This document shows positions 2,560 to 57,178 of a stretch of DNA of 64,000 nucleotides, one piece after another. The notes beneath the pieces are model-generated. The model had not been told where the DNA came from, did no database searches, and was given only the letters and a program-made list of their open reading frames with translations. How positions within the stretch are numbered: position 1 is the first letter of the stretch; each line of letters begins with the position of its first letter. The stretch comes from Eledone cirrhosa (lineage: Eukaryota), in NCBI GenBank assembly GCA_964016885.1, contig CAXHJY010000292.1:26410-90409 (forward strand), in the 5' to 3' direction. A program made the translations under genes and the position numbers.

Positions 2560-3690
2560 TAGGAAGGGCTTCAGGCCATTGAAAAACTGCCTTGAAAAGA
2601 AAAAGGAAAAGGTTTCATCCCACCTATGTTAGCATAGAAAAACAGACATAAGAATAATGACAACAACTATTTCATAGATATATATATATATATGTTAACA
2701 ACTTAGGTTCCTTCTATTAACATAGCATCTGTAATTACATATTACTACATACAAGTTGTATGATGATTGATCAGATAGAAAGTAGACAGGAAGTTCTATT
2801 TGTGGTACAGTAGTTTTTATGTTTTTTTAACAGAATCCATTGAGTGTATCTGGTTTAGAATAGATTCCTCATATCCTTGCATATCATATGATGCTACTAA
2901 AAGCATTAGCAACAGGAAGGGCATTCAGGTGTAAAACAATGCCTCAAAAAGTTCTCAAGGATGAATATGAAGCCAATCATGTCCACAAAGCTAACCCTTG
3001 CTTTAGCAGTGAAAAATGGTCTGAAAATACTTGTAGTAGTAACAGTCAACGTCCTTTCTGTTCAGTAACAGTACATCTGAAATTCCATACCACTACATAG
3101 AAGTTTTACGTTGATTGTTCAAAAAGAAAATATTAAGCAAGTTCTATTTGTGGTATGCAGAGGAGCTTTTTATTTTCTTATTTTTAACAGACCTCACTGT
3201 AATATATAGGAACATTTTTCAAGATGGTTCTGAAGAACACTCATTATGTATTCCTATCTGAGAGATTTTGTTGCCATGAAAATTAGTTAAACTAAAATTT
3301 TACATTACAGTCCTCAAAATACTTCAAACTGTTCTATTTATATTTTCTCAAATACAATCATGTTCATTTAAAACCAAAAAGAACTCTTGGCATTGAAAAA
3401 TAGACATACAATGATCATGATGAGGATGTACTCACAAACATGCATATGTACATGTATATGTAGATATACTTTTTATATATATATATATATAAATGCATTA
3501 AACTCTATGAAAGTAGTCACATTGGTGCCATGATAAAATACACACTATTCTGTAAAGTGGTTGACATAAGGAGAGGCATCCATCTGTAGAAACCATGCCA
3601 AAATAAAATGTATGTACATGATGAGGTTCCCGTCTTGTGAACCATGACAACCTATGCCAACAGGGAAGATGGATATTATATGATGATATA
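2560..3690 (+). mobile_element. Decayed SINE/RTE 3'-tail remnants (about three fragments)
   Basis: Diverged matches to the AGGAAGGGCATCCAGCTGTAGAAA tail motif of the younger RTE/SINE copies near 2560, 2913 and 3570. Confidence 0.45.
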
Positions 3691-6733: not shown

Positions 6734-7651
6734 ATCTTTGCTCCCAAATACAGGGAGTCCTCAACCAATTCCAGCAGCTTCCCGCCTATATTAGTGATCC
6801 CCTCTGGCTTCTCAACATTCTCTACTAGATATTTTGTTTTAGTCTCATTCATTCTCAGCCCCACACTCATCGACACAGTCTCAACCTCCCGCATCAAATC
6901 CTCTGCCTCCTTCACTGTATTTGTCACCAAAACTATGTCGTCGGCAAATTCACCATCCGATACCTTTTTCGCCCTAACTCTCCTGCTCTGAGCCGGTGCT
7001 ACAGTAAAGCCAGAGTCCTGGTGTTTCTCCAGTGCAAGTTGCATACAATAGTCCACTACGATGACAAAAAAGTAGGGAGCCAATGTAGGGAGCAAAGATT
7101 GGGAATACGGAAGATGATGTGGTTGAGAGGAAGAGCAAGGCCTGGGCTGCGTGCCATAGCTTGAGATCGGTGTGGAAGTTGGACCTTCGTAGAGACCTGA
7201 AAGTCCGCCTCTTCATTGCTGTAGTGGAGTCTGTGCTGCTGTATGGGTCTGAGACTTGGACACTGACCAAGAAACTCACTCAGATGGTGGATGGGTGCTA
7301 TACGAGAATGCTGAGGATGGCTCTGAACATTAATCAGTATACACTGAGGATGAAAAACTCAGAGCTGTATGGCAGCATCCCAAAAGTCAGCTCAAAAGTG
7401 ACACAGAGGAGACTGAGGTTAGCTGGACATGCTCACCGACATCCAGAGTTGACATTGCACTCAGTACTCCTTTGGGAGCCCCTACATGGACACACTAGAA
7501 GAGGAAGACAAAGGTTAAGGTATGTTGATGCCCTCAGGACAGACACTGGTCTGTTGGAGATGCAGGACATGGCAGCGATAATGAGGGACAGAGACCGCTG
7601 GAGAGAACTCGTCCATAGATCTCGGGAATTTTACCCGCCTTAGATAGATAG

Positions 7652-7717: not shown

Positions 7718-7776
7718 GCATACATATATATATATATATATATAAGATCAAATGATGGTTAAAGGAGTTCCATATA

Positions 7777-7843
7777 TTTTATTATGCGCATTTCAAAAAC
7801 AAACATCATCAAGCAATAATATTTGTGTTTTCATCAGATAAAA
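7777..7843 (-). ncRNA. Minimal type I hammerhead ribozyme (left PLE arm)
   Basis: Minus: TTTTAT-CTGATGA-stem II-GAAA-TGCGCA-TA-ATAAAA. Confidence 0.85.
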
Positions 7844-7939
7844 CAGGAGAACATGATATGAAGGCTAAAAAACACTTGTTGATAGTGCAGTTTTAAATCA
7901 ACATATGAAAAGTGGTTTTAGATTGATGTGTGATATTGG

Positions 7940-8345
7940 GAAAAATATTTTATTTTGAGAGGGGTGGGGGAGGATGAAAAGGGAAGGAGATGAGAGGGAG
8001 AGATGGGTGATAGAGAGAAAGAGATAGTTTTTATAACTGAGAGGAGATATATTTTTTACATAGAGGGGTTGAAAACCGTTGGAAGATACTGTATAAATTA
8101 AAAATTTTGAAAATTAACGAAGGGAGGATATGTGCGAGGAAAAAATATTTTATTTAGGGAGGGGGGGGCGATGAAAAAAAGGGGGGAGGAGATGAGAGTG
8201 AAGGTGGAGAGGGAGAGATGGGTGATAGAGAGAAAGAGATAGTTTTTATAACTGAGAAAAAGATATATTGTTTTAATATAGAGAGGTTGGGAACCGTTGG
8301 AAGATAATGTATAAATTAAAGGAATTTGAAAATTAACGAAGGGAA
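7940..8345. repeat. ~200 bp tandem duplication in PLE 3' region (mirrored at ~13965-14372)
   Basis: GGAGAGATGGGTGATAGAGAGAAAGAGATAG...AATTAACGAAGGGA occurs twice in tandem. Confidence 0.85.
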
Positions 8346-8819
8346 ATTATGTATGAAGATAGAGAGAAAAAAATAATAATTGTGGGTGAATATTCTAACG
8401 TCAAAAGAAGAAATGTATGTATTGTGGCAATTTCAAAATTAGCGAAGAGAAAAATTGTTAAGGTTTGTGTGTAGAAGGATTTGAGAAAAATAATGTGAAG
8501 TTAAAGTTTGTATATTGAATTGATATGTATTAATAATGAGTTCGTTGATGGGGAGAAAAAAAATAATAATAAATTAAGGATGAAATTGAGATTAAAAAGA
8601 TTTATGATAGAGAGAAAAAATAATAATGATTGCGGATGAATATTCAAAATGTCAAAAACAAATGTTATTATTTTACGAGAAGATAGAATGAGGGTAATGA
8701 GTAAACGAGTATTATAGAGTGTATAATGCCCTTTAAAGTAAGGTAGATGGGTATATTTTAAAGAGGTGTATGTATATGTGCCTTTGAGAAAAGATTCTAA
8801 ATTGATAAAGAATTGAATA

Positions 8820-11045
8820 TTAACTGTATACTTTGTGAAAAGTTCTATGGAATTTATGCAGGCAGATAGAAAACAAATCTGAGCGTCTATTTATTATAGA
8901 ATCTAGGTTAGAGATAATGGTAAATTTTTCATTTAGGCAGAGATTACAGATTTTAGATAGAGAGCTGTTCAAGTATGAGGATGCAGAAGAAATCTTTTTC
9001 CAAAAGATGTTATATTTAATGTTTTTGTCTTTTAAGGACCATATGAGTTCTGAGAGAGCAGTGTTAGTTCTTTTAAGTTTGTATTTGAAAGATGAATGAT
9101 GATTATAGAGACGAGCTTTAAAAGAGGTGGAAGTGGAGCCAAAATAGGTGAAGGAATTGGTGCTAGTTATAATTTTACATTCATAAATTAAGTTTTTATC
9201 GAGGCAATGGTTGTTGAGAGGACATTTATTTTTAATGCGGCAGTTGCAATTAGAGAGATTATTAATGAGTGATCTAGTGTTATCTATAGAAGGAATTGGA
9301 TTGGAGAAGTTGTTTGCGATAGGAATAATAGGAATAATAGTTTCTTGATTTAGAGTTGGATTATGAACATTTAGCGAAGTTGTGTTTGACGTTGTATTTG
9401 GGTTTACAGAAGTTAGCCTAGGGTTTACAATGACGTCGGGAGTACTATTACTGTTATTATGAAATTCAATATTGGAAGGAAGAGATTTAGTATTTAATAT
9501 TTTGTTGTTGTGTTTAGAGATGATGTTGGAAATATTGGAGGATGTAGAATACGAAAATTTGATGGTGTGTTTGTTAAATATTTTACTATAGATATGTGAG
9601 GGAGGGAAGCATTTATTTAAGGCACTAAAAAATAATTTAGGAATATTGTTATTAATAGAGATGGAGAAAGGAGCATTATACCAGATTATGTTTTTGTATC
9701 TAGGTCTTTTATTAAAATTATTGGAATGGTCATGATTAATTATTCTACTGTAAGTTTTCCTAGAACTTGTTTCTTTATTATATTTGATTTTGTCTGGATA
9801 GCCGGCTTTAGAAAGTGCGTTATTATAGTAATTGGCGTTAGCATCAAAGATGTTTTTATTAGAAGATATGTTAGATATTCTATTTCCAATATTATTAACT
9901 ATAGCATTCTTGATATTGGTAGGATGGTTAGATTTAAAGTTAACATAATTAAGATTCTCATTGTTTTTATGGTAAGGGTAATATAGGCCAGTGTCAAGAT
10001 TAAGAGATACATCCAAGAAATTAGCTAGTTTGATACTATTATCAAATTCAATTTTTAGGTTATGTTGGTTAAAGAGATTACGTATATTGTTCTTAATAAT
10101 ATTAAGTTTAACTATATTGCAATTTAGGATAGTAAAGAGTCCATCGTCACGATAAATTCCACCGCGAAGTTGAGGAATTTTCCGACTCAAAGAGTTCAAA
10201 ATGAAGATACCAATTAAATCAGTCAATTGGGATGAATCGGATGCTCCCATTGTGATGTCGAAGTTGTTAGAGGTATCGGCTCTGGTCCAATATTCGTTGT
10301 TGAACTCTAGGATGGTTTTACGTGCGGTGAGGATGATGTGAAGTTCATCTGTGGTGATGTCAGAATATTTAAGTGCGAAAGATAGAGCATTATTGAGAAG
10401 TGAAGGCGAAATGGAGGAATAGTAGCTGGCAATATCGAATTGAATAAATTTTAGTTTGTTTTTATTATCCAATTTGTTGAACCAGCCAATCACTTCAGAA
10501 GTACCAAACCATAAATTTAGGTTTAAAGAAGAGCAATTAGAACTAACCTGTGGGATAATCCTATCCAAGATGGCTTTACTAACAACCCCCAGATCAGATT
10601 TAGAGGGGGCGATTAATCTAACAGGTAGTTCAGTGCGAAAATTGTTTTTGTGATCCTTGAGATTTATCCTCGGAGTTCTTGGGAGGAATGGTTCGGTCTT
10701 TTTTTCAATGCCAAGTTTTGACATAATCTCATAGGCTTCAAGGTTTATGCATTCTAAATTTTTATGGTTGGTTTTACGATACTTTTTCCTAAGTTCCTTT
10801 AGGATAAGGTTGTTATAATTATCCTTGGAAATACCATATAGGTTATTGGTTTTGTCAGAGTGGACTAAAACATTTTTTGAGGAATTTAGGTTATAGATTG
10901 TGTTCTTGAGATTTACAAGGTGCTCTTGTCCTTTGTAAGGGTATCTCTTGAATTTAAGATTTTTTATTATTTTAGTTAATTCTTCCTCGAATTGTGCTAG
11001 ATTTTTGTTGGAAGGAGGATTTCGTCTAGAATTAAAAAGATGATC
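8820..11045 (-). CDS. PLE reverse transcriptase + GIY-YIG endonuclease, 5'-truncated
   Basis: Frame is open 107 codons upstream of the annotated Met and includes VHSDKTNNLY; motifs LKDHK, FDIASYY, TMGA, YRDDG, FLDV; C-terminal CNC..CPL..C, LIY..YFG, CNLC..EK. Confidence 0.9.
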   Translation of the reverse strand, partial: DHLFNSRRNPPSNKNLAQFEEELTKIIKNLKFKRYPYKGQEHLVNLKNTIYNLNSSKNVLVHSDKTNNLYGISKDNYNNLILKELRKKYRKTNHKNLECINLEAYEIMSKLGIEKKTEPFLPRTPRINLKDHKNNFRTELPVRLIAPSKSDLGVVSKAILDRIIPQVSSNCSSLNLNLWFGTSEVIGWFNKLDNKNKLKFIQFDIASYYSSISPSLLNNALSFALKYSDITTDELHIILTARKTILEFNNEYWTRADTSNNFDITMGASDSSQLTDLIGIFILNSLSRKIPQLRGGIYRDDGLFTILNCNIVKLNIIKNNIRNLFNQHNLKIEFDNSIKLANFLDVSLNLDTGLYYPYHKNNENLNYVNFKSNHPTNIKNAIVNNIGNRISNISSNKNIFDANANYYNNALSKAGYPDKIKYNKETSSRKTYSRIINHDHSNNFNKRPRYKNIIWYNAPFSISINNNIPKLFFSALNKCFPPSHIYSKIFNKHTIKFSYSTSSNISNIISKHNNKILNTKSLPSNIEFHNNSNSTPDVIVNPRLTSVNPNTTSNTTSLNVHNPTLNQETIIPIIPIANNFSNPIPSIDNTRSLINNLSNCNCRIKNKCPLNNHCLDKNLIYECKIITSTNSFTYFGSTSTSFKARLYNHHSSFKYKLKRTNTALSELIWSLKDKNIKYNIFWKKISSASSYLNSSLSKICNLCLNEKFTIISNLDSIINRRSDLFSICLHKFHRTFHKVYS

Positions 11046-11573
11046 AAAATTAGCGAAGAGAAAAATTGTTAAGGTTTGTTTGTAGAAGGATTTGAGAAAA
11101 ATAATGTGAAGTTAAAGTTTGTATATGTCATTGATATGTATTAATAATGAGTTCGTTGATGGGGAGAAAAAATTAATAATAAATTAAGGATGAAATTGAG
11201 ATTAAAAAGATTTATGATAGAGAGAAAAAATAATAATGATTGCGGATGAATATTCAAAATGTCAAAAACAAATGTTATTATTTTACGAGAAGATAAAATG
11301 AGAGTAATGAGTAAACGAGTATTATAGAGTGTATAATGCCCTTTAAAGTAAGGTAGATGGGTATATTTTAAAGAGGTGTATGTATATGTGCCTTTGAGAA
11401 AAGATTCTAAATTGATAAAGAATTGAATATTAACTGTATACTTTGTGAAAAGTTCTATGGAATTTATGCAGGCAGATAGAAAACAAATCTGAGCGTCTAT
11501 TTATTATAGAATCTAGGTTAGAGATAATGGTAAATTTTTCATTTAGGCAGAGATTACAGATTTTAGATAGAGA
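11044..11573 (-). repeat. Internal duplicate of PLE ORF end + 3' region (copy of 8433-8963)
   Basis: Near-identical to 8433-8963; lies in the spacer between the arms. Confidence 0.9.
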
Positions 11574-11587
11574 TAGAGTTTGAGATT

Positions 11588-13492
11588 ATGTCAAAACTTG
11601 GCATTGAAAAAAAGACCGAACCATTCCTCCCAAGAACTCCGAGGATAAATCTCAAGGATCACAAAAACAATTTTCGCACTGAACTACCTGTTAGATTAAT
11701 CGCCCCCTCTAAATCTGATCTGGGGGTTGTTAGTAAAGCCATCTTGGATAGGATTATCCCACAGGTTAGTTCTAATTGCTCTTCTTTAAACCTAAATTTA
11801 TGGTTTGGTACTTCTGAAGTGATTGGCTGGTTCAACAAATTGGATAATAAAAACAAACTAAAATTTATTCAATTCGATATTGCCAGCTACTATTCCTCCA
11901 TTTCGCCTTCACTTCTCAATAATGCTCTATCTTTCGCACTTAAATATTCTGACATCACCACAGATGAACTTCACATCATCCTCACCGCACGTAAAACCAT
12001 CCTAGAGTTCAACAACGAATATTGGACCAGAGCCGATACCTCTAACAACTTCGACATCACAATGGGAGCATCCGATTCATCCCAATTGACTGATTTAATT
12101 GGTATCTTCATTTTGAACTCTTTGAGTCGGAAAATTCCTCAACTTCGCGGTGGAATTTATCGTGACGATGGACTCTTTACTATCCTAAATTGCAATATAG
12201 TTAAACTTAATATTATTAAGAACAATATACGTAATCTCTTTAACCAACATAACCTAAAAATTGAATTTGATAATAGTATCAAACTAGCTAATTTCTTGGA
12301 TGTATCTCTTAATCTTGACACTGGCCTATATTACCCTTACCATAAAAACAATGAGAATCTTAATTATGTTAACTTTAAATCTAACCATCCTACCAATATC
12401 AAGAATGCTATAGTTAATAATATTGGAAATAGAATATCTAACATATCTTCTAATAAAAACATCTTTGATGCTAACGCCATTTACTATAATAACGCACTTT
12501 CTAAAGCCGGCTATCCAGACAAAATCAAATATAATAAAGAAACAAATTCTAGGAAAACTTACAGTAGAATAATTAATCATGACCATTCCAATAATTTTAA
12601 TAAAATACCTAGATACAAAAACATAATCTGGTATAATGCTCCTTTCTCCATCTCTATTAATAACAATATTCCTAAATTATTTTTTAGTGCCTTAAATAAA
12701 TGCTTCCCTCCCTCACATATCTATAGTAAAATATTTAACAAACACACCATCAAATTTTCGTATTCTACATCCTCCAATATTTCCAACATCATCTCTAAAC
12801 ACAACAACAAAATATTAAATACTAAATCTCTTCCTTCCAATATTGAATTTCATAATAACAGTAATAGTACTCCCGACGTCATTGTAAACCCTAGGCTAAC
12901 TTCTGTAAACCCAAATACAACGTCAAACACAACTTCGCTAAATGTTCATAATCCAACTCTAAATCAAGAAACTATTATTCCTATTATTCCTATCGCAAAC
13001 AACTTCTCCAATCCAATTCCTTCTATAGATAACACTAGATCACTCATTAATAATCTCTCTAATTGCAACTGCCGCATTAAAAATAAATGTCCTCTCAACA
13101 ACCATTGCCTCGATAAAAACTTAATTTATGAATGTAAAATTATAACTAGCACCAATTCCTTCACCTATTTTGGCTCCACTTCCACCTCTTTTAAAGCTCG
13201 TCTCTATAATCATCATTCATCTTTCAAATACAAACTTAAAAGAACTAACACTGCTCTCTCAGAACTCATATGGTCCTTAAAAGACAAAAACATTAAATAT
13301 AACATCTTTTGGAAAAAGATTTCTTCTGCATCCTCATACTTGAACAGCTCTCTATCTAAAATCTGTAATCTCTGCCTAAATGAAAAATTTACCATTATCT
13401 CTAACCTAGATTCTATAATAAATAGACGCTCAGATTTGTTTTCTATCTGCCTGCATAAATTCCATAGAACTTTTCACAAAGTATACATTTAA
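11588..13492 (+). CDS. PLE reverse transcriptase + GIY-YIG endonuclease, 5'-truncated (second arm)
   Basis: 634 aa ORF differing from the left arm at only a few residues (e.g. NANY/NAIY, KRPR/KIPR). Confidence 0.9.
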   Translation: MSKLGIEKKTEPFLPRTPRINLKDHKNNFRTELPVRLIAPSKSDLGVVSKAILDRIIPQVSSNCSSLNLNLWFGTSEVIGWFNKLDNKNKLKFIQFDIASYYSSISPSLLNNALSFALKYSDITTDELHIILTARKTILEFNNEYWTRADTSNNFDITMGASDSSQLTDLIGIFILNSLSRKIPQLRGGIYRDDGLFTILNCNIVKLNIIKNNIRNLFNQHNLKIEFDNSIKLANFLDVSLNLDTGLYYPYHKNNENLNYVNFKSNHPTNIKNAIVNNIGNRISNISSNKNIFDANAIYYNNALSKAGYPDKIKYNKETNSRKTYSRIINHDHSNNFNKIPRYKNIIWYNAPFSISINNNIPKLFFSALNKCFPPSHIYSKIFNKHTIKFSYSTSSNISNIISKHNNKILNTKSLPSNIEFHNNSNSTPDVIVNPRLTSVNPNTTSNTTSLNVHNPTLNQETIIPIIPIANNFSNPIPSIDNTRSLINNLSNCNCRIKNKCPLNNHCLDKNLIYECKIITSTNSFTYFGSTSTSFKARLYNHHSSFKYKLKRTNTALSELIWSLKDKNIKYNIFWKKISSASSYLNSSLSKICNLCLNEKFTIISNLDSIINRRSDLFSICLHKFHRTFHKVYI

Positions 13493-14468
13493 TATTCAAT
13501 TCTTTATCAATTTAGAATCTTTTCTCAAAGGCACATATACATACACCTCTTTAAAATATACCCATCTACCTTACTTTAAAGGGCATTATACACTCTATAA
13601 TACTCGTTTACTCATTACCCTCATTCTATCTTCTCGTAAAACAATAACATTTGTTTTTGACATTTTGAATATTCATCCGCAATCATTATTATTTTTTCTC
13701 TCTATCATAAATCTTTTTAATCTCAATTTCATCCTTAATTTATTATTATTTTTTTCTCCCCATCAACGAACTCATTATTAATACATATCAATTCAATATA
13801 CAAACTTTAACTTCACATTATTTTTCTCAAATCCTTCTACACACAAACCTTAACAATTTTTCTCTTCGCTAATTTTGAAATTGCCACAATACATACATTT
13901 CTTCTTTTGACGTTAGAATATTCACCCACAATTATTATTTTTTTCTCTCTATCTTCATACATAATTTCCCTTCGTTAATTTTCAAATTCCTTTAATTTAT
14001 ACATTATCTTCCAACGGTTCCCAACCTCTCTATATTAAAACAATATATCTTTTTCTCAGTTATAAAAACTATCTCTTTCTCTCTATCACCCATCTCTCCC
14101 TCTCCACCTTCACTCTCATCTCCTCCCCCCTTTTTTTCATCCTTTCCCCCCCCTCCCTAAATAAAATATTTTTTCCTCGCACATATCCTCCCTTCGTTAA
14201 TTTTCAAAATTTTTAATTTATACAGTATCTTCCAACGGTTTTCAACCCCTCTATGTAAAAAATATATCTCCTCTCAGTTATAAAAACTATCTCTTTCTCT
14301 CTATCACCCATCTCTCCCTCTCATCTCCTTCCCTTTTCATCCCCCCCCCCCTCTCTAAATAAAATATTTTTCCCAATATCACACATCAATCTAAAACCAC
14401 TTTTCATATGTTGATTTAAAACTGCACTATCAACAAGTGTTTTTTAGCCTTCATATCATGTTCTCCTG

Positions 14469-14535
14469 TTTTATCTGATGAAAACACAAATATTATTGCT
14501 TGATGATGTTTGTTTTTGAAATGCGCATCATAAAA
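14469..14535 (+). ncRNA. Minimal type I hammerhead ribozyme (right PLE arm)
   Basis: TTTTAT-CTGATGA-AAACACAAATATTATTGCTTGATGATGTTTGTTTTT-GAAA-TGCGCA-TC-ATAAAA; 6 bp stem I, palindromic stem III, AUC cleavage triplet. Confidence 0.88.
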
Positions 14536-14661
14536 TATATGGAACTCCTTTAACCATCTTTTGATCTTATATTATGCATACTCCAGTCCCACAAACTGTA
14601 GAGTGCTTCTTATCCGATATCTGCATTGCTTTATTGTACTACAATAAAACTCACCTCCCAC

Positions 14662-14749: not shown

Positions 14750-15861
14750 CATCATCATCAGGTTTAGCGTCCGTGTTCCACGCTTGCATGGGTTTGGACG
14801 GGGGTTTTCCCACTTGAGGCAAGAGTGATTGTCTTGCTCGCATAGGACTGTCTGGCGGGTTTTCTACAGTTGGATGCCCTTCCTAACACCAACCACATTT
14901 ACAGTGTGGGGCTGGGCGGTTTTTACCGTGTTGCCTACACGGCCACATTACAGCGTGGACTGTCTGGCGGGTTTTCTACAGCTGGATGCCCTTCCTAACA
15001 CCAACCACATTTACAGTGTGGGGCTGGGAGGTTTTTACCGTGTTGCCTACACGGCCACATTTACAGCGTGGACAGTTTGTTTTTTTTTGTCGTGACACCT
15101 ACACGATCTCATTTGTTTCGGCCTGGATGTTGTGGGACCAACATAACTTACATTGAAAGGGGCGGTGTGGATGGGGTGGAGGTGGTGGGACGGGGGTGTG
15201 CTTTGATAGAGATGCCTACTGACTGTAGTAGGTTTTTACTTTGTATTTAGGTAAGGCGGGTCTTCTCTATTACTGAGTACCGCCAAAGGTCTCGGTCCAG
15301 TGACATTGTCTTGGAGAGGTGTAAGCGTGTGAGGTCGGAATTTATCAGCTCGTCCCATGTTTTTCTGGGTCTGCCTACTCTGTGGCTACCGTCTATCTTT
15401 ATTGCCCTGCACTTTGTTATACAGCTGTCGTCTTTCATGCGCATCACGTGACCGTACCAACGTAGCCTTCTCTCGAGTAAACAACATCTGATCCCTCTTA
15501 TTTCTAATTTTTTCCTTAGTTCGTTTATGCTTTGCCGTTCAAGTATATTACTATTGCACATCCAGCGGAGCATGCAAGCTTCGTTCCTCTCTAGTCTGCG
15601 TATATCCTCTGCACACAATGCCCAGGTCTCATTGCCATGCAGCATTGCTGTTCGTATGCAGGCATCGTATAACCTGCCTTTCATTTTTAGGGAGAGCCCT
15701 CTAGCGGCTAATAGTGGTATAAGCACTCTGAACTTTTTCCATCCAGTTCTGACTCTAGCTACTGTACTTTCAGAGCACCCTCCCCCACTGCTGATTTTGT
15801 CACCCAGGTAACGGAAGCTGTCCACTATTTCTATAGAACCCTCTGCGCAGTTGAAGGAGCT
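14750..15861 (-). mobile_element. 5'-truncated RTE LINE (family B, ends IEKTRLT*)
   Basis: FRYLGD...MLHGNETW...[11 protein letters not shown]...GRPRKTW; 3' UTR with ~112 bp tandem duplication; (TGA)n tail. Confidence 0.9.
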
Positions 15862-15907
15862 AATATATATATACATACATATGCATATATATATATACAT
15901 ATATATA

Positions 15908-16517: not shown

Positions 16518-17122
16518 TGGTGGCTGCCAACTCGTTTTCGAGTACGGCCACTACTTTATATCCATGTAGGAGAACCCCTACCGATGCGCTGAACTACTGT
16601 GACTTTTTAGTCCAGCCAGCGACTTGAGAACTCTGGTACAAACACTACACTTTTGACAATTATTGACACATAGTGCTGGGCCCATGGTACCATGTGACGA
16701 CAAGTGCAGAGAGATCTCCTGATATAAATCAATGCCTGTGCCGTGAAGATTTTATAGTGAGCAAAGGCACTGCACAAAGCCAGTCCCACTCTCTTAACCA
16801 AGATGATATTTACCAAAAAGAAGAACAAGTCAACATCATTGGATACCATCAGGGTTGCAGGTGTTATATCAGAGTTTTCCTTCTCCTAGAATTCTGCCTT
16901 GACAAAGGCTAAGGGGTCATCTCTCCCGATGATTTTGGATGGCCATTGACTCTTAAGAGCTCCTTTGCCCTTTGACAGGTTTTGTTTTTAGTCCCACAGG
17001 ATGTCCAAAGTCACCCTCCTCACCAAGAAACCTTGATGGGGTTGCCAGTTTATTCGCCAACGACCCGACCATGAGACAGGTTGTACTGGGATACATGTTA
17101 CCAGTAGCACCAACTGGTGACC
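16518..17122 (-). mobile_element. ~610 bp non-autonomous RTE-derived element, copy 1
   Basis: Near-identical to copies at 27518, 44807 and 47699; flanked by TA arrays. Confidence 0.85.
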
Positions 17123-17568
17123 ATACATATATATACACATATATATACATACATATACACATATATACACATATATATACATACATATATATACACATAT
17201 ATATACATACATATATATAGACATATATATACATACATATATATAGACATATATATAGACATATATATACATACATATATATAGACATATATATACATAC
17301 ATATATATATATACATATATATACATACATATATATATACATATATATACATATATATATATACATATATATACATATATATATATATACATATATATAC
17401 ATATACATATATATACATATACATATATATACATACATATATATACATATATATACATATATATATATACACATATATATATACATATATATATACATAT
17501 ATATACATACATATATATACATATATATATACATACATATATATATATACATATATATACATACATAT

Positions 17569-17730
17569 CTAAGGCGGGTAAAATTCCCGAGATCCATGCA
17601 CGCGTTCTCTCCAGCGGTCTTTGTCCCTCATTATCGCTGCCATGTCCTGTGTCTCCAACAGACCAGTGTCTGTCCTTAGGGCATCAACATACGTTAACCT
17701 TGGTCTTCCTCTTCTAGTGTGTCCATGCAT
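17569..17730 (-). mobile_element. RTE family C 3' fragment (HGHTRRGRP...REFYPP*)
   Basis: Homologous to 7485-7643. Confidence 0.88.
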
Positions 17731-17767
17731 TGTGTGCAGAGAGAGGAATGAAGCTTGCATGCTCCGG

Positions 17768-20017
17768 CAAGAGACAGGCATGGAAAGAATGGAGAACGGG
17801 GGGAGCAGGGTACATTACATAGAGACCAAGAGGGAAGCTAGGCGACAAGTATACTTAGCTAGGAGGGAAGCAGAGGATAGGAAATTCAAGCATGTTTTGC
17901 AACGTGAGGACCAGAAACAGGAGGTATTCAAGATTGCGAAGCAGTGTGTCAGAGATAGTTGTGATGTCATTGGAGAGAAGTGTATCCGGAATGATAAAGG
18001 TGAGCTTGCCCTCACAAGTGCTGAGAAGAAAGATGCATGGAAGAGTCATTATGATAGATTACTAAATGAGGAGAATGCATGGGGAGAAGAGACCCTACCC
18101 CAAGTAGACCCTATAGAGGGACCAGCAGTACAAGTCAGCAGCAGCGTAGTAAGTAAGGCAATCAAAGATATGAAGATGGGGAAGGCAACCGGTCCATCGG
18201 CTATAGCTGCCGAGATGCTGAAGGCATCTGGGTCTGTAGGTCACACTATAACCACACGTATCGTTAACCAGGTAATACTAGAAGGTGCCATACCAAAAGA
18301 TTGGTGCAGTAGCGTCATTGTCAACTGCTACAAAGGTAAAGGCGATGCACTAGATAGAGGAAACTATAGAGGTATGAAGTTGATGGACCAGGTCATGAAA
18401 GTAACAGAAAGAGTTATAGCACAGCTGATTAGGGACCGGGTGAATATAGACGAGATGCAATTTGGGTTTGTACCAGGAAGAGGCACCACTGATGCCTCTT
18501 CCTTGTGAGGCAATTACAGGAAAAGTACCTAGCTAAATGTAAGCCACTCTACTTGGCATTTGTCGACCTTGCGAAAGCCTTTGACAGAGTTCCACGTGCT
18601 GTAATCTGGTGGGCTCCTAGAAAACTAGGAGTAGATGAATGGCTTGTGAAAGCGGTACAAGCCATGTATAGGGGAGCAGTCAGCAAAGTTAGGATTAGCA
18701 ATGAGTATAGCGATGAATTTAGCGTACAGGTTGGGGTCCACCAGGGCTCTGTTCTTAGCCCCTCCTGTTCATCATAGTCCTGCAGTCAATAACGGAGGAG
18801 TTTAAGACCGGATGCCCATGGGAACTCCTGTATGCTGATGACCTCGCACTCATAGCTGAATCTATGGTAGAACTAGAGAAGAAATTCCAAACTTGGAAGC
18901 AGGGACTAGAAAGAAAGGGTCTCAAAGTCAACATGACAAAGACTAAGGTCCTTGTAAGTAGACGAGAAAACAAATGCAAACAATAGGTTCACAAGAGATG
19001 TAGCGGGATCTCAGGAAGCTTAATTAAGAATGTGGGATTCACATGCAGCAGCTGTGCTGAGACAGCACGCAGCAAACAGCCACAGGAAACAAGTACCACC
19101 AATCTCTGGGAGGGCTCTGTAGAAACAGTAGACAGCTTCTGCTACCTAGGTGACCGAATTAGCAGCGGAGGTGGGTGTTCAGAAAGTACAATAACTAGGG
19201 TAAGAACGGGATCGAAGAAGTTTAGGGAACTACTACCACTGCTAGCTGCAAAAGGCTTCTCCCTCAGAATGAAAGGCAGACTGTATGATGCGTGTATCCG
19301 AACTGCGATGTTGCATGGTAGTGAGACCTGGACGCTGAAGGTGGAAGACTTACGTAGATTAGAGAGAAACGAAGCCTGCATGCTCCGATGGATGTGTAAC
19401 AGTAATATACATGAACGACAAAGCATAAATGAATTGAGAGAGAGACTGAGCATAAGAGGAGTCAAATGCTGTGTGCAGGAGAGGCGGTTGCGCTGGTATG
19501 GACATGTGATGCGTATGAAGGATGACAGCTGCATAAAAAGGTGCAGAGTACTAGAAGTTGATGGAAACCGCGGAGTGGGGAGACCCAAGATGACCTGGGA
19601 TGAGGTGATAAAAGCCGACCTTACCCAATTACACCTCTCAAAGGCAATGACACATGACCGTGACTTCTGGCGTCACGCAGTAATACAGAGTACCCGACCT
19701 CCCATGGGTACAAGCTGAAGCATATAGACAATATGCCCCAACACCCCTCACCGCAAGGTGGTCGTGGAGGTGCCACGGCAAAAAAGCACCCAGCCCACAC
19801 TGTAAAGTGGACGTGTAGGCGCCACGAAAAAGCAGGCAGCACTCACTGTAAATGAGGTTGGTGTTAGGAAGGGCATCCAGCTGTAGAAATCAAGCCAAAT
19901 CAGTTCCTGTATGAGCAAGGCATGGTCAGCCAACCAGACACTGCCCACAACAGGACAACCCGTCTAACCCATGCTAGCGTGGAAGAACGGACGTAAAACG
20001 GTGATGATGATGATGAT
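17768..20017 (+). mobile_element. 5'-truncated, frameshifted RTE LINE (family A)
   Basis: Highly similar to 20292-22626; frameshifts near 18495 and 18760; 78 bp deletion near 18972; YADD; (TGA)n tail. Confidence 0.92.
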
Positions 20018-20111
20018 ACATATATATATATATATATATACATACACATATATATATATACATATACATATATATATACATATATATATATACATATACA
20101 TATATATATAC

Positions 20112-20142
<31 letters not shown>

Positions 20143-20215
20143 CATACACATATATATATATACATATACATATATATATACATATATATATATACATATA
20201 TATATATACATATAC

Positions 20216-20291
<76 letters not shown>

Positions 20292-20293
<2 letters not shown>

Positions 20294-23190
20294 CATCATC
20301 ATCATCATCATCACCGTTTTACGTCCGTTCTTCCACGCTAGCATGGGTTAGACGGGTTGTCCTGTTGTGGGCAGTGTCTGGTCGGCTGACCATGCCTTGC
20401 TCATACAGGAACTGATCTGGCTTGATTTCTACAGCTGGATGCCCTTCCTAACACCAACCTCATTTACAGTGAGTGCTGGGTGCTTTTTCGTGGCGCCTAC
20501 ACGTCCACTTTACAGTGTGGGCTGGGTGCTTTTTTGCCGTGGCACCTCCACGACCACCTTGCGGTGGGGGGGGGGGGGGCATATTGTTTATATGCTTCAG
20601 CATGTACCCATGGGAGGTCGGGTACCCTGTATTACTGCGTGACGCCAGAAGTCACGGTCGTGTGTCATTGACTTTGAGAGGTGTAGTTGGGTAAGGTCGG
20701 CTTTTATCACCTCATCCCAAGTCATCTTGGGTCTCCCCACTCCGCGGTTTCCATCAACTTCTAGTGCTCTGCACCTTTTTATGCAGCTGTCATCCTTCAT
20801 ACGCATCACATGTCCATACCAGCGTAACCGCCTCTCCTGCACGCAGCATTTGATTCCTCTTATGCTCAGTCTCTCTCTCAATTCATTTATGCTTTGTCGT
20901 TCACGTATATTACTGTTACACATCCATCGGAGCATGCAGGCTTCGTTTCTCTCTAATCTACGTAGGTCTTCCACCTTCAGCGCCCAGGTCTCACTACCAT
21001 GCAACATCGCTGTTCGGATACACGCATCATACAGTCTGCCTTTCATTCTGAGGGAGAAGCCTTTTGCAGCTAGCAGTGGTAGTAGTTCCCTAAACTTCTT
21101 CCATCCCGTTCTTACCCTAGTTATTGTACTTTCTGAGCACCCACCTCCGTTGCTAATTCGGTCACCTAGGTAGCAGAAGCTGTCTACTGTTTCTACAGGG
21201 CCCTCCCAGAGATTGGTGGTACTTGTTTCCTGTGGCTGTTTGCTTGCTGTTTCAGCACAGCTGCTGCATGTGAATCCTACATTCTTAATTAAGCTTCCTG
21301 AGATCCCGGTACATCTCTTGTGTACCCATTGTTTGCATTTGGGGCAAAGAATGGAGTTCCTACCTACACCTTTCCTACATACTGAGCAAGGCCATTTCCC
21401 TGAGGGGATCTGGGTTCTGTTTTCTCGTCTACTTATAAGGACCTTAGTCTTTGTCATGTTGACTTTGAGGCCCTTTCTCTCTAGTCCCTGCTTCCAGGTT
21501 TGGAATTTATTCTCTAGTTCTACCATAGATTCAGCTATGAGTGCGAGGTCATCAGCATACAGGAGTTCCCATGGGCATCCGGTCTTAAACTCCTCCGTTA
21601 TTGCCTGCAGGACTATGATGAACAGGAGAGGGCTAAGAACAGAGCCCTGGTGGACCCCAACCTGTACGCTAAATTCCTCGCTATACTCATTGCCAATCCT
21701 AACTTTGCTGACTGCTCCCCTATACATGGCTTGTACCGCTTTCACAAGCCATTCATCTACTCCTAGTTTTCTAGGAGCCCACCAGATTACTGCACGTGGA
21801 ACTCTGTCAAAGGCTTTCTCAAGGTCGACAAATGCCAAGTAGAGTGGCTTACTTTTAGCTAGGTACTTTTCCTGTAATTGCCTCACAAGGAAGAGCGCAT
21901 CAGTGGTGCCTTTCCCTGGAACAAACCCAAATTGCATCTCGTCTATATTCACCCGGTCCCTAATCAGCTGTGCTATAACTCTTTCTGTTACTTTCATGAC
22001 CTGGTCCATCAACTTTATACCTCTATAGTTTCCTCTATCTAGTGCATCGCCTTTACCTTTGTAGCAGTTGACAATGATGCTACTGCACCAATCTTTTGGT
22101 ATGGCCCCCTCTAGTATTACCTGGTTAACGATACGTGTGGTTATAGTGTGACCTACAGACCCAGATGCCTTCAGCATCTCGGCAGCTATACCCGATGGAC
22201 CGGTTGCCTTCCCTATCTTCATATCTCTGATTGCCTTACTTACTACGCTGCCGCTGACTTGTACTGCTGGTCCCTCTATAGGGTCTACGTGGAGTAGGGT
22301 CTCTTCTTCCCATGCATTCTCCTCATTTAGTAATCTATCATAATGACTCTTCCATGCATCTTTCTTCTCAGCACTTGTGAGGGCAAGCTCACCTTTATCA
22401 TTCCGGATACACTTCTCTCCAATGACATCACAACTATCTCTGACACACTGCCTCGCAATCTTGAATACCTCCTGTTTCTGGTCCTCACGTTGTAAAACAT
22501 GCTTGAATTTTCTATCCTCTGCTTCCCTCCTAGCTAAGTATACTTGTCGCCTAGCTTCCCTCTTGGTCTCTATGTAATGTACCCTGCTCCCCCCGTTCTT
22601 CCATTCTTTCCATGCCTGTCTCTTGGCCTTGACTGCTTCATCTACCTTATTGTTCCACCACCAAGTCACTCTCCTCCTGCTTGAGGTCTTACTCCAGCCA
22701 CAAACCTCATCCGTCGCCTCTAGTAAGTTATTTTTTAGGAACTCCCAGTTCTCTTCTACGTTAAATGTCTCTATCTGTTCTTCTTTACTGTCGTAGGCGT
22801 TGAGTAAAATATCTTTAAATCTGTTACTGGTTGAGGGGACTTTCAGCTTCCAGATCTTTCTTCTCCAGGTTGGCCTCTGTTTCAGGGCTCGTCTAGTTCT
22901 GACCGTGAGGTCGCTGACAACTAAGCTATGTTGGGATGTACATTCCTCACTAGGGAAGGCTTTTGTGTTTACGACCGTCCATCTGTCACGTCCTCTGATG
23001 AGGATAAAATCTAACTGACTAGAGTGCTCCCCTGATCTATAGGTGATCAGGTGGTTGTCGGGTTTTTTAAAGTTTGTGTTACATATCGACATGTCATTGG
23101 CGTCGCAGAATTCTAGAAGTCTGAATCCTTCCTCATTCCTTGTGCCAACTCCATGGCCTCCATGTACTCTATTGAAGCCGTCGCAGTGTT
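20292..23190 (-). mobile_element. 5'-truncated RTE LINE (family A) with uninterrupted remaining ORF
   Basis: Partial APE (SQLDFILI, SQHSLV), RT (YKGKGD..NYRGI, FVDLEKAFD, VHQGSVLSP, YADD), PHD-like finger, 3' UTR, (TGA)n tail. Confidence 0.93.
20597..23092 (-). CDS. RTE ORF: partial AP endonuclease + RT + C4HC3 PHD-like finger
   Basis: 831 aa ORF with the motifs above; frame continues upstream to the junction at ~23190. Confidence 0.9.
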   Translation of the reverse strand: MSICNTNFKKPDNHLITYRSGEHSSQLDFILIRGRDRWTVVNTKAFPSEECTSQHSLVVSDLTVRTRRALKQRPTWRRKIWKLKVPSTSNRFKDILLNAYDSKEEQIETFNVEENWEFLKNNLLEATDEVCGWSKTSSRRRVTWWWNNKVDEAVKAKRQAWKEWKNGGSRVHYIETKREARRQVYLARREAEDRKFKHVLQREDQKQEVFKIARQCVRDSCDVIGEKCIRNDKGELALTSAEKKDAWKSHYDRLLNEENAWEEETLLHVDPIEGPAVQVSGSVVSKAIRDMKIGKATGPSGIAAEMLKASGSVGHTITTRIVNQVILEGAIPKDWCSSIIVNCYKGKGDALDRGNYRGIKLMDQVMKVTERVIAQLIRDRVNIDEMQFGFVPGKGTTDALFLVRQLQEKYLAKSKPLYLAFVDLEKAFDRVPRAVIWWAPRKLGVDEWLVKAVQAMYRGAVSKVRIGNEYSEEFSVQVGVHQGSVLSPLLFIIVLQAITEEFKTGCPWELLYADDLALIAESMVELENKFQTWKQGLERKGLKVNMTKTKVLISRRENRTQIPSGKWPCSVCRKGVGRNSILCPKCKQWVHKRCTGISGSLIKNVGFTCSSCAETASKQPQETSTTNLWEGPVETVDSFCYLGDRISNGGGCSESTITRVRTGWKKFRELLPLLAAKGFSLRMKGRLYDACIRTAMLHGSETWALKVEDLRRLERNEACMLRWMCNSNIRERQSINELRERLSIRGIKCCVQERRLRWYGHVMRMKDDSCIKRCRALEVDGNRGVGRPKMTWDEVIKADLTQLHLSKSMTHDRDFWRHAVIQGTRPPMGTC

Positions 23191-23492
23191 GGGGAGGGTC
23201 ATATTTGTGTAATATTGCCAGAATTAATAACAGAACACACTCACTGTTTGGTTGGTTTTCGCTTCTCGCTGTCTTTTATATATATATATCTGCGATCTAA
23301 CTTACTCGGTCCTCAATGTTGCCATTGACTGACCGGCGGTCAAAAATAATACAGATACAATATAGACAAACACATATATATATAGTTTACATAATTTACA
23401 TAAATCTTTCGTTGCACATCTGCAACATCGTCAGTGGTGTTATATTCATTGTTCCTCCTGTTGTGTTGTATGTCTACGCCATTTTTTTTGTG
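23189..23492 (-). mobile_element. Pseudo-LTR fragment of the Neptune-like PLE, fused to the RTE 5' end
   Basis: Near-identical to 56935-57228. Confidence 0.85.
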
Positions 23493-23499
23493 TTCCAAA

Positions 23500-27517: not shown

Positions 27518-28127
27518 TGGTGGCTGCCAACTCGTTTTCGAGTACGGCCACTACTTTATATCCATGTAGGAGAACCCCTACCGATGCGCTGAACGAGTGT
27601 GACTTTTGAGTCCAGCCAGCGACTTGAAAACTCTGGTACAAACACTACACTTGTGACAATTATTGACACATAGTGCTGGGCCCATGGTACCATGTGATGA
27701 CAAGTGCAGAGAGATCTCCAGATATAAAGCAATGCCTGTGCTGTGAAGCTTTTATAGTGAGCAAAGGCACTGCACAAAGCCAGTCCCACTCTCTTAACCA
27801 AGATGATATTTACCAAAAAGAAGAACAAGTCAACATCATTGGATACCATCAGGGTTGCAGGTGTTATATCAGAGTTTTCCTTCTCTTAGAATTCTGCCTT
27901 GACAAAGGCTAAGGGGTCATCTCTCCCAGTGATTTCGGATGGCCATTGACTCTTAAGAGCTCCTTTGCCCTTCGACAGGTTTTGTTTTTAGTCCTGCAGG
28001 ATGTCCAAAGTCACCCTCCTCACCAAGAAACCTTGGTGGGGTTGCCAGTTTAGTCGCCAACGACCCGACCATGAGACAGGTTGTACTGGGATACATGTTA
28101 CCAGTAGCACCAAGTGGTGACCTGACA
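27518..28127 (-). mobile_element. ~610 bp non-autonomous RTE-derived element, copy 2
   Basis: Near-identical to the other three copies. Confidence 0.85.
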
Positions 28128-28300: not shown

Positions 28301-28301
<1 letters not shown>

Positions 28302-29172
28302 CATGTTACTGAACGAAGACAAATTCGAACTGATCCACTTTGGAAAAGAGGATGCTCTGAAACTCCCATACTCCCTTCCCTCCGGGGAAACTCTCGTGGC
28401 ATCTAACAACATCAGAGACTTGGGAGTAACCGTGGACAGCAACATAAGCTGGACCACGCATATAAGCAGCAAAGTTGACATGGCCCGCAGAATGTGTTCC
28501 TGGATCCTCAGAACCTTCCAGTCGAGAGATTCCCGCACCATTATCCTTCTCTTCTCTACTTTCGCCCGACCACACCTTGAATACTGTTGTCCACTGTGGT
28601 CTCCCCACACGAAACAAAGTATCATGAAACTTGAAGCTCCTCAAAGGGCAATCACGAAAAAGATAGATGGCATGTCAGACCTTGACTACTGGGGTCGATT
28701 AGAAAACCTGAAACTTTACTCACTCCAACGTCGCCGTGAGCGTTATATTATCTGCATGATGTGGAAAATGTTCCATCATCACTGCCCAAATGATGTTGGC
28801 ATCGCCTTCAAGATACACCCAAGGCTTGGACCCCGTGCTATCCGTCCCATTCAAAAATCTAAATCGCAACTCATAACAACAATACGGCACAATTATTTCC
28901 CCTCAATCGGCCCTGCTCTCCTCAACATCACACCAGGACACGTCAAAACAGAAACTGACCACACAAAATTCAAGAAGTCTTTGGACAAATTCCTCCAAGT
29001 AATCCCGGACAAACCACCCACACCCGGATATGTCTCCGCAAACAGTAATTCTCTTCTCGAATGGGCCATGGTGCCCAAATCCTGAATTGAAAGACTTCGC
29101 CAGGTGGTGCTATTAAGTTAGACATGGCCTGGGCCAATACTGGCCAAAACATTTCAAAGTTATTCAAAGTTA
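28301..29172 (+). mobile_element. 5'-truncated CR1-type LINE
   Basis: Near-identical to 54002-54872; [23 protein letters not shown]; TTCAAAGTTA repeat tail. Confidence 0.9.
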
Positions 29173-44806: not shown

Positions 44807-45416
44807 TGGTGGCTGCCAACTCGTTTTCGAGTACGGCCACTACTTTATATCCATATAGGAGAACCCCTACCGATGCACTGAACGAGTGTGACCTTTTAGT
44901 CCAGCCAGCGACTTGAAAACTCTGGTACAAACACTACACTTGTGACAAATATTGACACATAGTGCTGGGGCCATGGTACCCTGTGACGACAAGTGCAGAG
45001 AGATCTCCAGATATAAAGCAATGCCTGTGCCGTGAAGCTTTTATAGTGAGCAAAGGCACTGCACAAAGCCAGTCCCACTCTCTTAACCAAGATGATATTT
45101 ACCAAAAAGAAGAACAAGTCAACATCATTGGATACCATCAGAGTTGCAGGTGTTATATCAGAGTTTTCCTTCTCCTAGAATTCTGCCTTGACAAAGGCTA
45201 AGGGGTCATCTCTCCCGGTGATTTTGGATGGCCATTGACTCTTAAGAGCTCCTTTGCCCTTTGACAGGTCTTGTTTTTAGTCCTGCAGGATGTCCAAAGT
45301 CACCCTCCTCACCAAGAAACCTTGGTGGGGTTGCCAGTTTAGTCGCCAACGACCCGACCATGGGACAGGTTGTACTGGGATACATGTTACCAGTAGCACC
45401 AACTGGTGACCTGACA
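44807..45416 (-). mobile_element. ~610 bp non-autonomous RTE-derived element, copy 3
   Basis: Near-identical to the other copies. Confidence 0.85.
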
Positions 45417-45750: not shown

Positions 45751-45906
45751 TGTGGAGGTGCCACGCAAAAAAAAGCACTCACTGTAAATGAGGTTGGTGT
45801 TAGGAAGGGCATGCAGCGGTAGAAATCAAGCCAGAATCAGTTCCCGTCCAGCCTTGCAAGCAGGGAAAAGTGGACGTGAAATGAAATGAAAAAATGAAAA
45901 AATGAT
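45751..45906 (+). mobile_element. 5'-truncated SINE (3' tail only)
   Basis: Matches 50030-50180; (AATGA)n tail. Confidence 0.8.
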
Positions 45907-46896: not shown

Positions 46897-47251
46897 TGGC
46901 GGCACATGGCTTAGTGGTTAGAGCATTGGCCTTGCAATCGAAAGGTTGTGAGTTCAATTCTCAGTCCGGGTGATGTGTTGTTTCCTTGAGCAAGACACTT
47001 TATTTCACATAGCCCCAGTTTACTCAGCTGTAGAAATGAGATGATAGGGACTGGGTCCCTATCATTCCACTGCAAAGTGGTCATGGAGGTGCCACGGCAA
47101 AAAAGCACCCAGCCCACAATGCAAGGTGGCCGTGGAGGTGCCACGGCAAAAAAGCACCCAGCACTCACAGTAAATGAGGTTGGTGTTAGGAAGGGCATCC
47201 AGCAGGGAGAAGCGGACGTAAAAATGAAATGAAATGATGATGAAATGATGA
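46897..47251 (+). mobile_element. tRNA-derived SINE with RTE-like 3' tail, copy 1
   Basis: A-box TGGCTTAGTGG, B-box GAGTTCAATTC, central CCTTGAGCAAGACACTT motif, tail homologous to the RTE family A 3' UTR. Confidence 0.88.
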
Positions 47252-47698: not shown

Positions 47699-48307
47699 TG
47701 TCAGGTCACCAGTCGGTGCTACTGGTAACATGTATCCCAGTACAACCTGCCTCATGGTCGGGTCGTTGGCGACTAAACTGGCAACCCCACCAAGGTTTCT
47801 TGGTGAGGAGGGTGACTTTGGACATCCTGCAGGACTAAAACAAAACCTGTCAAAGGGCAAAGGAGCTCTTAAGAGTCAATAGCCATCCAAAATCACCGGG
47901 AGAGATGACCCCTTAGCCTTTGTCAAAGCAGAATTCTAGGAGAAGGAAAACTCTGATATAACACCTGCAACCCTGATGGTATCCAATGATGTTGACTTGT
48001 TCTTCTTTTTGGTAAATATCATCTTGGTTAAGAGAGTGGGACTGGCTTTGTGCAGTGCCTTTGCTCACTATAAAAGCTTCACAGCACAGGCATTGCTTTA
48101 TATCTGGAGATCTCTCTGCACTTGGCATCACATGGTACCATGGGCCCTGCAATATGTGTCAATAATGGTCACAAGTGTAGTGTTTGTATCAGAGTTTTCA
48201 AGTCGCTGGCTGGACTAAAAAGTCACATTCGCTCAGCGCATCGGTAGGGGTTCTCCTACATGGATATAAAGTAGTGGCCGTACTCGAAAACGAGTTGGCA
48301 GCCACCA
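47699..48307 (+). mobile_element. ~610 bp non-autonomous RTE-derived element, copy 4 (opposite orientation)
   Basis: Reverse complement of copies 1-3; encodes [18 protein letters not shown] near its 3' end; terminal ACTCG-AAAA-CGAGT hairpin. Confidence 0.85.
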
Positions 48308-49834: not shown

Positions 49835-50180
49835 GGAGGCACATGGCTTAGTGGTTAGAGCATTGGCCTTGCAATCGAAAGGTTGTGAGTTCAATTCTTA
49901 GACCGGGTGATGTGTTGTTTCCTTGAGCAAGACACTTTATTTCACATTGCTCCAGTTTACTCAGCTGTAGAAATGAGATGATAGGGACTCCATTGAGATG
50001 ATAGGGACTCCATTCCACTGCAAAGTGGTCGTGGAGGTGCCACGGCAAAAAAAGCACCCAGCACTCACTGAGGTTGGTGTTAGGAAGGGCATCCAGCTGT
50101 AGAAATCAAGCCAGCATCAGTTCCCATCCTACCCTTGCAAGCAGGGAAAAGCGGACGTAAAATGAAATGAATGAAATGAT
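49835..50180 (+). mobile_element. tRNA-derived SINE with RTE-like 3' tail, copy 2
   Basis: Same A/B boxes and tail as the 46897 copy; small duplication of GAGATGATAGGGACTCCATT. Confidence 0.88.
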
Positions 50181-54700: not shown

Positions 54701-54872
54701 TAATCCCGGACAAACTACCCACACCCGGATATGTCTCCGCAAACAGTAATTCTCTTCTCGAATGGGCCATGGTGCCCAAATCCTGAATTGAAAGACTTCG
54801 CCAGGTGGTGCTATTAAGTTAGACATGGCCTGGGCCAATACTGGCCAGAACATTTCAAAGTTATTCAAAATT
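51718..54872 (+). mobile_element. CR1-type LINE, near-complete ORF2 (APE + RT), inactivated
   Basis: LNAQGL, frameshift near 51868, VLTETHL, TGA at 52048-52050, YRPP, GDFN, SDH, NYRPISLT, YLDFSKAFD, GVPQG, FADD; short 3' UTR and TTCAAA(G/A)TTA tail. Confidence 0.92.
52090..54786 (+). pseudogene. Residual CR1 ORF2 reading frame (APE C-terminal part + RT)
   Basis: 898 aa open frame; its N-terminal APE part upstream is broken by a frameshift and a nonsense codon. Confidence 0.85.
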
Positions 54873-56867
<1,995 letters not shown>

Positions 56868-57143
56868 GCGGCGATGAATTAGTTTTGCGAGGTTTTTTAT
56901 ATGAAATCGTGTGTCGAAACAGATATTGTTATATTTGGGGAGGGTCATATTTGCGTAATATTGCCAGAATTAATAACAGAACACACTCACTGTTTGGTTG
57001 GTTTTCGCTTCTCGCTGTCTTTTATATATATATATCTGCGATCTAACTTACTCGGTCCTCAATGTTGCCATTGACTGACCGGCGGTCAAAAATAATACAG
57101 ATACAATATAGACAAACACATATATATATAGTTTACATAAATC

Positions 57144-57178
57144 TTTCGTTGCACATCTGCAACATCGTCAGTGGTGTT
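57144..57178 (-). ncRNA. Hammerhead-like core (stems I/III uncertain); second copy at 23407-23441
   Basis: Minus: CTGACGA-T-GTTGCA-GATG-TGCAAC-GAAA with perfect 6 bp stem II. Confidence 0.45.

Follow-up and report, generated by a model that had tools for sequence, protein, structure and literature searches.

How the 5' end of a LINE and the second DNA strand are joined is still poorly understood, and priming at the second DNA end has so far been regarded as mostly a trait of human L1. The idea of twin priming is said to go back to Ostertag and Kazazian in 2001. According to the accessible part of PMC4245944, 5' inversions were observed for human L1 in human cells alone, bar one Nimb-2 insert; in twin priming as presented there, a single RNA is primed internally from the second DNA end.

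The joining of two RNAs in one insertion has already been published, chiefly for human L1. The available text on dual human L1 reporters (Mendez-Dorantes et al., 10.1101/2025.09.17.676864) reports same-site insertion by two reverse transcription reactions twice, while five of seven dual events joined distant sites; these were engineered human L1s in cultured cells, with 50-150 bp of designed homology and with target-site duplications. A tumour L1 bridge, in which two inverted L1s are joined at their 5' ends, is described in the accessible part of Zumalave et al. (10.1101/2024.08.27.596794) as a somatic event within one family that links two distant sites and has a reciprocal junction. For human L1, too, the available portion of 10.1101/2024.12.14.628481 describes an insertion whose two ends were each extended on a separate mRNA. 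Antisense RNA/L1 and Alu/L1 chimeras are attributed to twin priming in PMC13174262, whose accessible text concerns mammalian L1 combined with small RNAs, mRNAs or Alu, the chimeras being confirmed through their target-site duplications. Finally, tripartite chimeric retroelements of Magnaporthe and mammals fuse three transcripts and, as far as the available text of PMC2104539 goes, are explained by double template switching in one reverse transcription run, with a 14-bp direct repeat.

Here we describe an insertion in Eledone cirrhosa that combines three LINE families and has two outward-facing 3' ends. Such two-tailed fusions recur in this genome, and the interest of the work lies mainly in that series of fusions rather than in the single locus. 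Within a partial coverage of the literature, we found no earlier account of fusions like these in RTE-type or invertebrate LINEs, nor of inversions at high frequency in them.

A three-family insertion between TA-rich tracts

The stretch of DNA that we analysed (the window; 64,000 nucleotides) reaches the end of a 90-kb contig in a 3.0-Gb assembly and consists of a chain of TA-rich tracts with young insertions. The parts that matter for the locus are as follows, in window coordinates.

17118-17568, no strand: left TA-rich microsatellite tract, with ACA-type interruptions on the plus strand
17569-17727, minus strand: 3' end of a family C LINE (C reference 3132-3291), with an outward-facing ORF C-terminus and stop codon
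17727-17741, plus strand: first internal piece of family B (reference 2890-2904), its first base common to C
17740-17766, plus strand: second piece from inside family B (reference 2919-2945), beyond the 16-nt deletion and overlapping the first piece by 2 nt
17767, plus strand: a single extra G, or a family A base if the template was an L003-type variant
17768-20017, plus strand: 5'-truncated family A LINE with a broken ORF, 3' UTR and (GAT)n tail
20018-20305, no strand: TA-rich microsatellite tract on the right, with plus-strand interruptions of ACA type like those of the left tract
14754-15866, minus strand: neighbouring family B copy containing the source region of the B filler, a candidate DNA template about 2.1 kb away
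6734-7644, plus strand: another family C copy, 5'-inverted with the geometry of twin priming, which serves as a control within the window

The three-family insertion is real, dead and one-off, and we propose no function for it. Its C part is 159 bp long and 97.5% identical to the closest sampled copies, with four private changes in 158 nt. A preliminary description of the window had this minus-strand 3' end run to 17730; the 3' end is present, but the match stops at 17727. Beyond that position intact C runs on differently in all 30 longer C copies among the sampled loci, and three public contig sets also have loose ends at this boundary. The description had also named about 40 bp of family B with an internal deletion, and we find them: the 40-bp filler corresponds to positions 2890-2945 of the 3,645-nt B reference, which lie inside the ORF, some 700 nt short of the 3' end of B; it has the same sense as A, and 16 nt between 2-nt repeats (AG) are missing from it. 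The 26-nt right part of the filler has 563 exact matches in the genome, and the deletion is absent in the first 30 of these 563; the deletion junction itself has a single match in the assembly, its own locus. Family A then continues on the plus strand down to its tail, as described: this part of about 2.25 kb starts at position 1589 of the 3,909-nt A reference and carries a 76-bp internal deletion at 18972 and 27 private changes in 2,230 nt.

Neither join contains TA, in agreement with the spacer-free joins noted earlier, and alignment of the junctions for microhomology gives overlaps of 1-2 nt. C and B have 1 nt (G) in common. Between B and A there is one extra G relative to the commonest A variants (48 of 56 matches in sampled loci), or 1 nt in common if the variant of the closest sampled copy, L003, is used instead.

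We looked for the remainder of C, B or A beside the locus and found none, so this is not a simple nested insertion; the host remainder beyond the inserted tail that marks nesting is absent here, and the same test flags one other locus, L361. Measured against what the accessible texts of the published cases describe, the locus resembles the dual-reporter events (10.1101/2025.09.17.676864): two RNAs, each with its own 3' end facing outward, leave two tails, and their cDNAs are joined to seal a single insertion. In contrast to those events, the partners here are natural copies of families about 25% identical in protein, the inner overlap is 1 nt rather than 50-150 bp, a third piece is present, and there is no readable duplication. 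Like the tumour bridge (10.1101/2024.08.27.596794), the locus has two 5'-truncated, inverted elements joined at their 5' breakpoints, each tailed, but no rearrangement is evident. The chimeras of PMC13174262 offer the same logic of two reactions at opposite ends of a break giving opposite orientations and a template switch giving the same sense, as for B with A, though they do not combine two autonomous LINE families and a filler. Twin priming shares the priming of the second DNA end, and its geometry fits family C's own inversions (PMC4245944), but it primes one RNA, whereas the inverted arm here is another family's own 3' end. Nor are all parts in one orientation, as in the tripartite elements made in one run (PMC2104539): only B and A share a sense, and C is inverted with its own 3' end.

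Full-length A, B and C contain single open frames of 1040, 1075 and 1056 aa, respectively, each with Exo_endo_phos and RVT_1 matches in Pfam; the RVT_1 match clears the Pfam cut-off in every family, and so does the endonuclease match, though in C by a narrow margin. The A and B proteins are 73% identical, and C is about 25% identical to either. Their 3' tails are short tandem repeats, (GAT)n in A and B and (TAGA)n in C. From this architecture, and from C-terminal motifs that we take to be RTE-type, all three are probably RTE-type elements, the clade name of C being provisional; clade names are absent among the 120 homologues of C listed, and human L1 ORF2p is distant (E 1e-31). A short tandem-repeat tail in place of poly(A) is given as a feature of the RTE clade in the accessible part of PMC6007223. 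Exact 3'-end motifs number 12,501 in the genome for A (part of them from a SINE sharing A's end), 16,651 for B, and 6,458, 2,232 and 60 for three C variants.

Some further features of these and related elements deserve mention. A and B have a PHD-like finger directly after the RT domain (L242:1145-4264, L093:2227-5451), and the 76-bp deletion of the A copy at the locus falls there. A fourth LINE family, with a 911-aa endonuclease-RT frame, lies at window positions 51828-54853 and 28301-29152. A SINE-like family with a tRNA-like head (by eye) and part of the A/B 3' UTR is found at 46904-47222, 49836-50160 and 45752-45877.

Two-tailed fusions and 5' inversions in a genome sample

We took loci in genome order through the 3'-end motifs of A, B and C and a motif from the B filler, and added loci picked by similarity. 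After de-duplication the sample held 445 young copies with a 3' end, of which 409 had a visible 5' end (A 109, B 120, C 180, including the A and C of the locus itself); the other 36, whose 5' end lay beyond the fetched locus, were left out. The sample is not uniform, because many A copies sit in one satellite region of contig C1 rather than in TA. In this region (L216-L249, 7.2-9.4 Mb of C1) A copies are numerous and very young, and several of them retain an intact 1040-aa frame.

The preliminary description had suggested a search for other head-to-head fusions. Among the 409 visible 5' ends, there are seven further spacer-free head-to-head joins with two outward 3' ends, all of them A/B or C/C: five A/B (L009, L103, L342, L343 and L174, the B 3' end of the last lying in L116/L316) and two C/C (L142 and L295). 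In the C/C fusions the same 3' region has been copied twice, which is impossible by a single pass over one RNA. Spacer-free joins in the same direction number one, L239, and neighbours across TA spacers are opposite in 6 cases and in the same direction in 14, near the 1:2 expected at random. The ratio of 7:1 for spacer-free joins against 6:14 across TA is significant (Fisher p=0.011; p=0.003 with an earlier, smaller tally of 4:14 across TA), for small counts in a class that was defined after the data had been seen, with four of the seven loci ordered by position and three picked by similarity. Sequential insertion with loss of the spacer does not predict such an orientation bias.

The overlaps at the seven other joins, read by eye, are 2, 2-3, 1, 1, 4, 4 and 0 nt, and the breakpoints lie at non-homologous positions, contrary to inverted-repeat collapse. 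Head-to-head look-alikes do exist, since L361 is nested: in L361:2188-4773 a young B lies within an older B of opposite orientation, outside TA, with the host remainder right after the tail. It is the sole tail-to-tail case, and the sample contains no spacer-free join of two 3'-truncated young copies. None of the 179 other C copies with visible ends is joined to A or B, and the 409 visible 5' ends include no second join of three families. Joins similar to the one described here are present on the large contigs C1 and C9. Most of the other fusions have just one long TA flank, which makes flank similarity (for six of them) and host-repeat continuity (at L295) uninformative. Two-tailed fusions amount to about 1-2 per 100 copies; scaled up to the roughly 38,000 exact 3'-end matches, this would mean a few hundred loci.

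Several joins were left out of this count: L361 (nested), L039 (TA inside the join), L074 (partner a Penelope-like piece, 66% identity), an A/H join at window position 23189 (partner no LINE), and D/A and B 5'-UTR/A matches (shared sequence). In L239:1-4557, the same-direction case, two A copies stand in tandem, the tail of the first running straight into a nearly full-length second.

Family C has a second property that bears on the locus. An inverted upstream piece of C forms the 5' end of 54 of the 180 C copies, compared with none of 109 for A and two of 120 for B. The inner points are at most 30 nt apart in 31 of the 54 inverted copies and overlap by more than 30 nt in none. Of the 34 inverted arms that were examined in an earlier subset, 32 have their start in TA. 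These inversions match twin-priming geometry. They are expected when the second DNA end is primed, and so support opposite-strand priming; a point on the other side is that A and B, the partners in most fusions, almost never invert on their own RNA. Examples are the copy at window positions 6734-7644, L146, L149, L150, L168, L253 and L256, where the inverted arm sometimes extends to the element's first base.

The genome offers two large natural series, an RTE-type family that inverts in 30% of its copies beside two that nearly never do, and the two-tailed fusions. Together they would make it possible to distinguish directly, on empty alleles, the sealing of one break by two RNAs from the bridging of two breaks. 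If the bridging of two breaks is true, these LINEs would be a source of heritable deletions.

Flanks, age and assembly

Left and right of the join alike, all 21 TA tracts of at least 100 bp between window positions 4375 and 63999 carry their ACA-type interruptions on the plus strand. The two flanks of the locus have a similarity of 1.0; values above 0.8 occur in 29 of 39 ordinary copies and in 29% of random pairs. The tract asymmetry disfavours an inversion or translocation at the join; because it extends across the window, it is compatible with a deletion between nearby tracts. Both flanks are TA, and a target-site duplication is therefore unreadable. We searched the assembly for a second, empty allele, using unique DNA of the window as well as the 600-bp element next to the locus, and found none.

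Private changes in C (4/158) and A (27/2230) are compatible with one age (p=0.14), and C plus B together (5/198) lean slightly older than A without reaching significance (p=0.18). A and C are both present in three public contig sets, in which no bridging piece was seen among the 18 pieces listed of about 3,600, and a raw-read run contained no reads matching the stretch; the species of these runs is perhaps another one, and we regard this as neutral evidence.

Other elements crowd the same tracts, whose shared asymmetry would suit a single long array broken up by insertions, or may reflect a sequencing bias. A fixed-length 600-bp element occurs in TA tracts at 16520-17120, 27520-28120, 44809-45409 and 47706-48305; its copies are 96-98% identical, the genome has 2,797 candidates, and its longest ORF is below 100 aa. 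Directly to the right of the locus, at 20306-23495, lies a very young A copy (four private changes in 2,879 nt, 892-aa open frame) whose 5' end has a 2-nt-overlap join to a 300-bp piece of another repeat, also found at 56869-57235. The interval 7746-14566 contains two copies of a Penelope-like element in inverted orientation, about 98% identical to each other, and a 530-bp piece is present in duplicate; by eye, the element has an RT with a C-terminal GIY-YIG-like part, and it gave no Pfam match.

Possible routes to the locus

It is very probable that two separately primed cDNAs were joined head to head, a core claim common to our preferred reading and to the two-step, bridge and DNA-filler alternatives below. 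The preferred reading, which we would place just short of probable, is one event: one TA tract would have primed a C RNA on one strand and an A RNA on the other, each at its own 3' end, and the unfinished cDNAs would have been joined, with a switch through B. TA microsatellites are identical on both strands, which would make opposite-strand priming of one tract by unrelated LINEs feasible. The self-complementary tract would be nicked on both strands. The A reverse transcriptase would copy 2.3 kb and then switch to a B RNA about 700 nt from its end, where it would copy 27 nt, slip by 16 nt between the two AG repeats and copy 13 nt more. A single shared base would link the resulting end with the 159-nt C cDNA, after which both strands would be filled in by host repair.

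The preliminary description had proposed that two different RNAs were primed from the two strands of one break, with a template jump through a third. Priming of two RNAs on opposite strands is supported by the outward tails, the lack of remainders, the seven recurrences with their orientation bias, and the C inversions. The single break goes beyond the evidence, as TA hides any target-site duplication and the assembly holds no empty allele, and so does the jump through a third RNA, because the filler is unique in the sample and a two-step or DNA-templated origin fits equally. More broadly, we put forward as a tentative possibility that unrelated LINE particles prime opposite strands of one TA tract simultaneously, and that this may be a routine heritable route, with a few hundred cross-family two-tailed fusions, 0-4 nt joins and an RTE-type family twin-priming in 30% of its copies; the locus would then represent three RNAs at one break.

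An alternative that we consider unlikely divides the history into two steps, a C/B head-to-head fusion and a later A primed in TA past B's tail, whose 5' join deleted about 700 nt of B and left 40 bp. This would account for a same-sense stub from inside B with no need to enter an RNA partway along, and it draws on B being the partner in five of the seven other fusions, on short slips being common near 5' joins (L184, L196, L205, L234, L249), and on the slightly higher load of private changes in C plus B than in A. It requires two rare events at one site, no other 5' end among the 409 lies inside a 3'-truncated, same-direction copy of a different family, and the age difference is not significant. 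Dual priming may also have been combined with a B filler templated on DNA by a host end-joining polymerase, for example from the inverted B copy to the left, which is quite improbable. That neighbour carries the source region in fold-back orientation with a CpG site as the sole difference, and the filler, with its length of 40 bp, its stutter and its overlaps of 1-2 nt, looks like the kind of insert that templated end joining would leave; a distance of 2.1 kb is far for end-joining templating, a nearby B copy is expected anyway where B copies are this dense, and the neighbour may be younger than the locus (eight private changes in 901 nt).

Priming of C and A at two separate TA tracts, with joining of their cDNAs and deletion or rearrangement of the intervening DNA, is distinctly unlikely. 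Its layout is that of the tumour bridge of two 5'-truncated L1s as given in the accessible text (10.1101/2024.08.27.596794), and most dual events reported in the available text of the reporter study were of the bridge kind (10.1101/2025.09.17.676864); against it stand the unbroken tract asymmetry and the flank similarity, which counter an inversion or translocation but not a local deletion. A history in which three elements entered one TA tract independently and two small deletions afterwards brought them together would suit a region so crowded with insertions, where nesting does occur (L361), but two deletions leaving just 40 bp are required, and same-direction and tail-to-tail joins should then outnumber head-to-head ones, the reverse of our count; we judge this very improbable. 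An assembly or library artefact is scarcely credible: although no read support was obtained and the contig is short and repeat-rich, with the window up to its end, the parts carry private mutations, the joins have overlaps of 1-2 nt rather than long repeats, the inversions are specific to a family (C, not A), and C1 and C9 carry similar joins.

The origin of the B filler is the weakest step in our preferred reading, since the sample offers no series of such fillers. Scanning 268 ordinary junction windows with 14-mers, we found no convincing foreign filler elsewhere: there were 15 matches, compared with 43 in control windows, and they were mostly short self-duplications, self-inversions and neighbours across TA, with three isolated 14-mer matches that we took for chance. 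We also set aside three candidate clues. An AAT variant as a marker of the B source falls on the CpG site, which is C in 13 of 14 unselected B matches and is seen across B subfamilies, and it is uninformative. Homologous recombination between B and A is contradicted by breakpoints at non-homologous positions (B 2945, A 1589). A breakpoint hot spot in C was suggested by four other C copies that break at the same base, but these were selected by the query, and by our own estimate about a dozen per position would be expected.

Two smaller observations concern tandem repetition within these families. In a young B subfamily, represented by the neighbouring copy at 14754-15866 and by L312, L315 and L339, about 120 nt of the 3' UTR are duplicated in tandem, with one unit more in L339. 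At L175, a short unit from the adjoining sequence of an A copy is repeated in tandem ahead of the 5' end of that copy.
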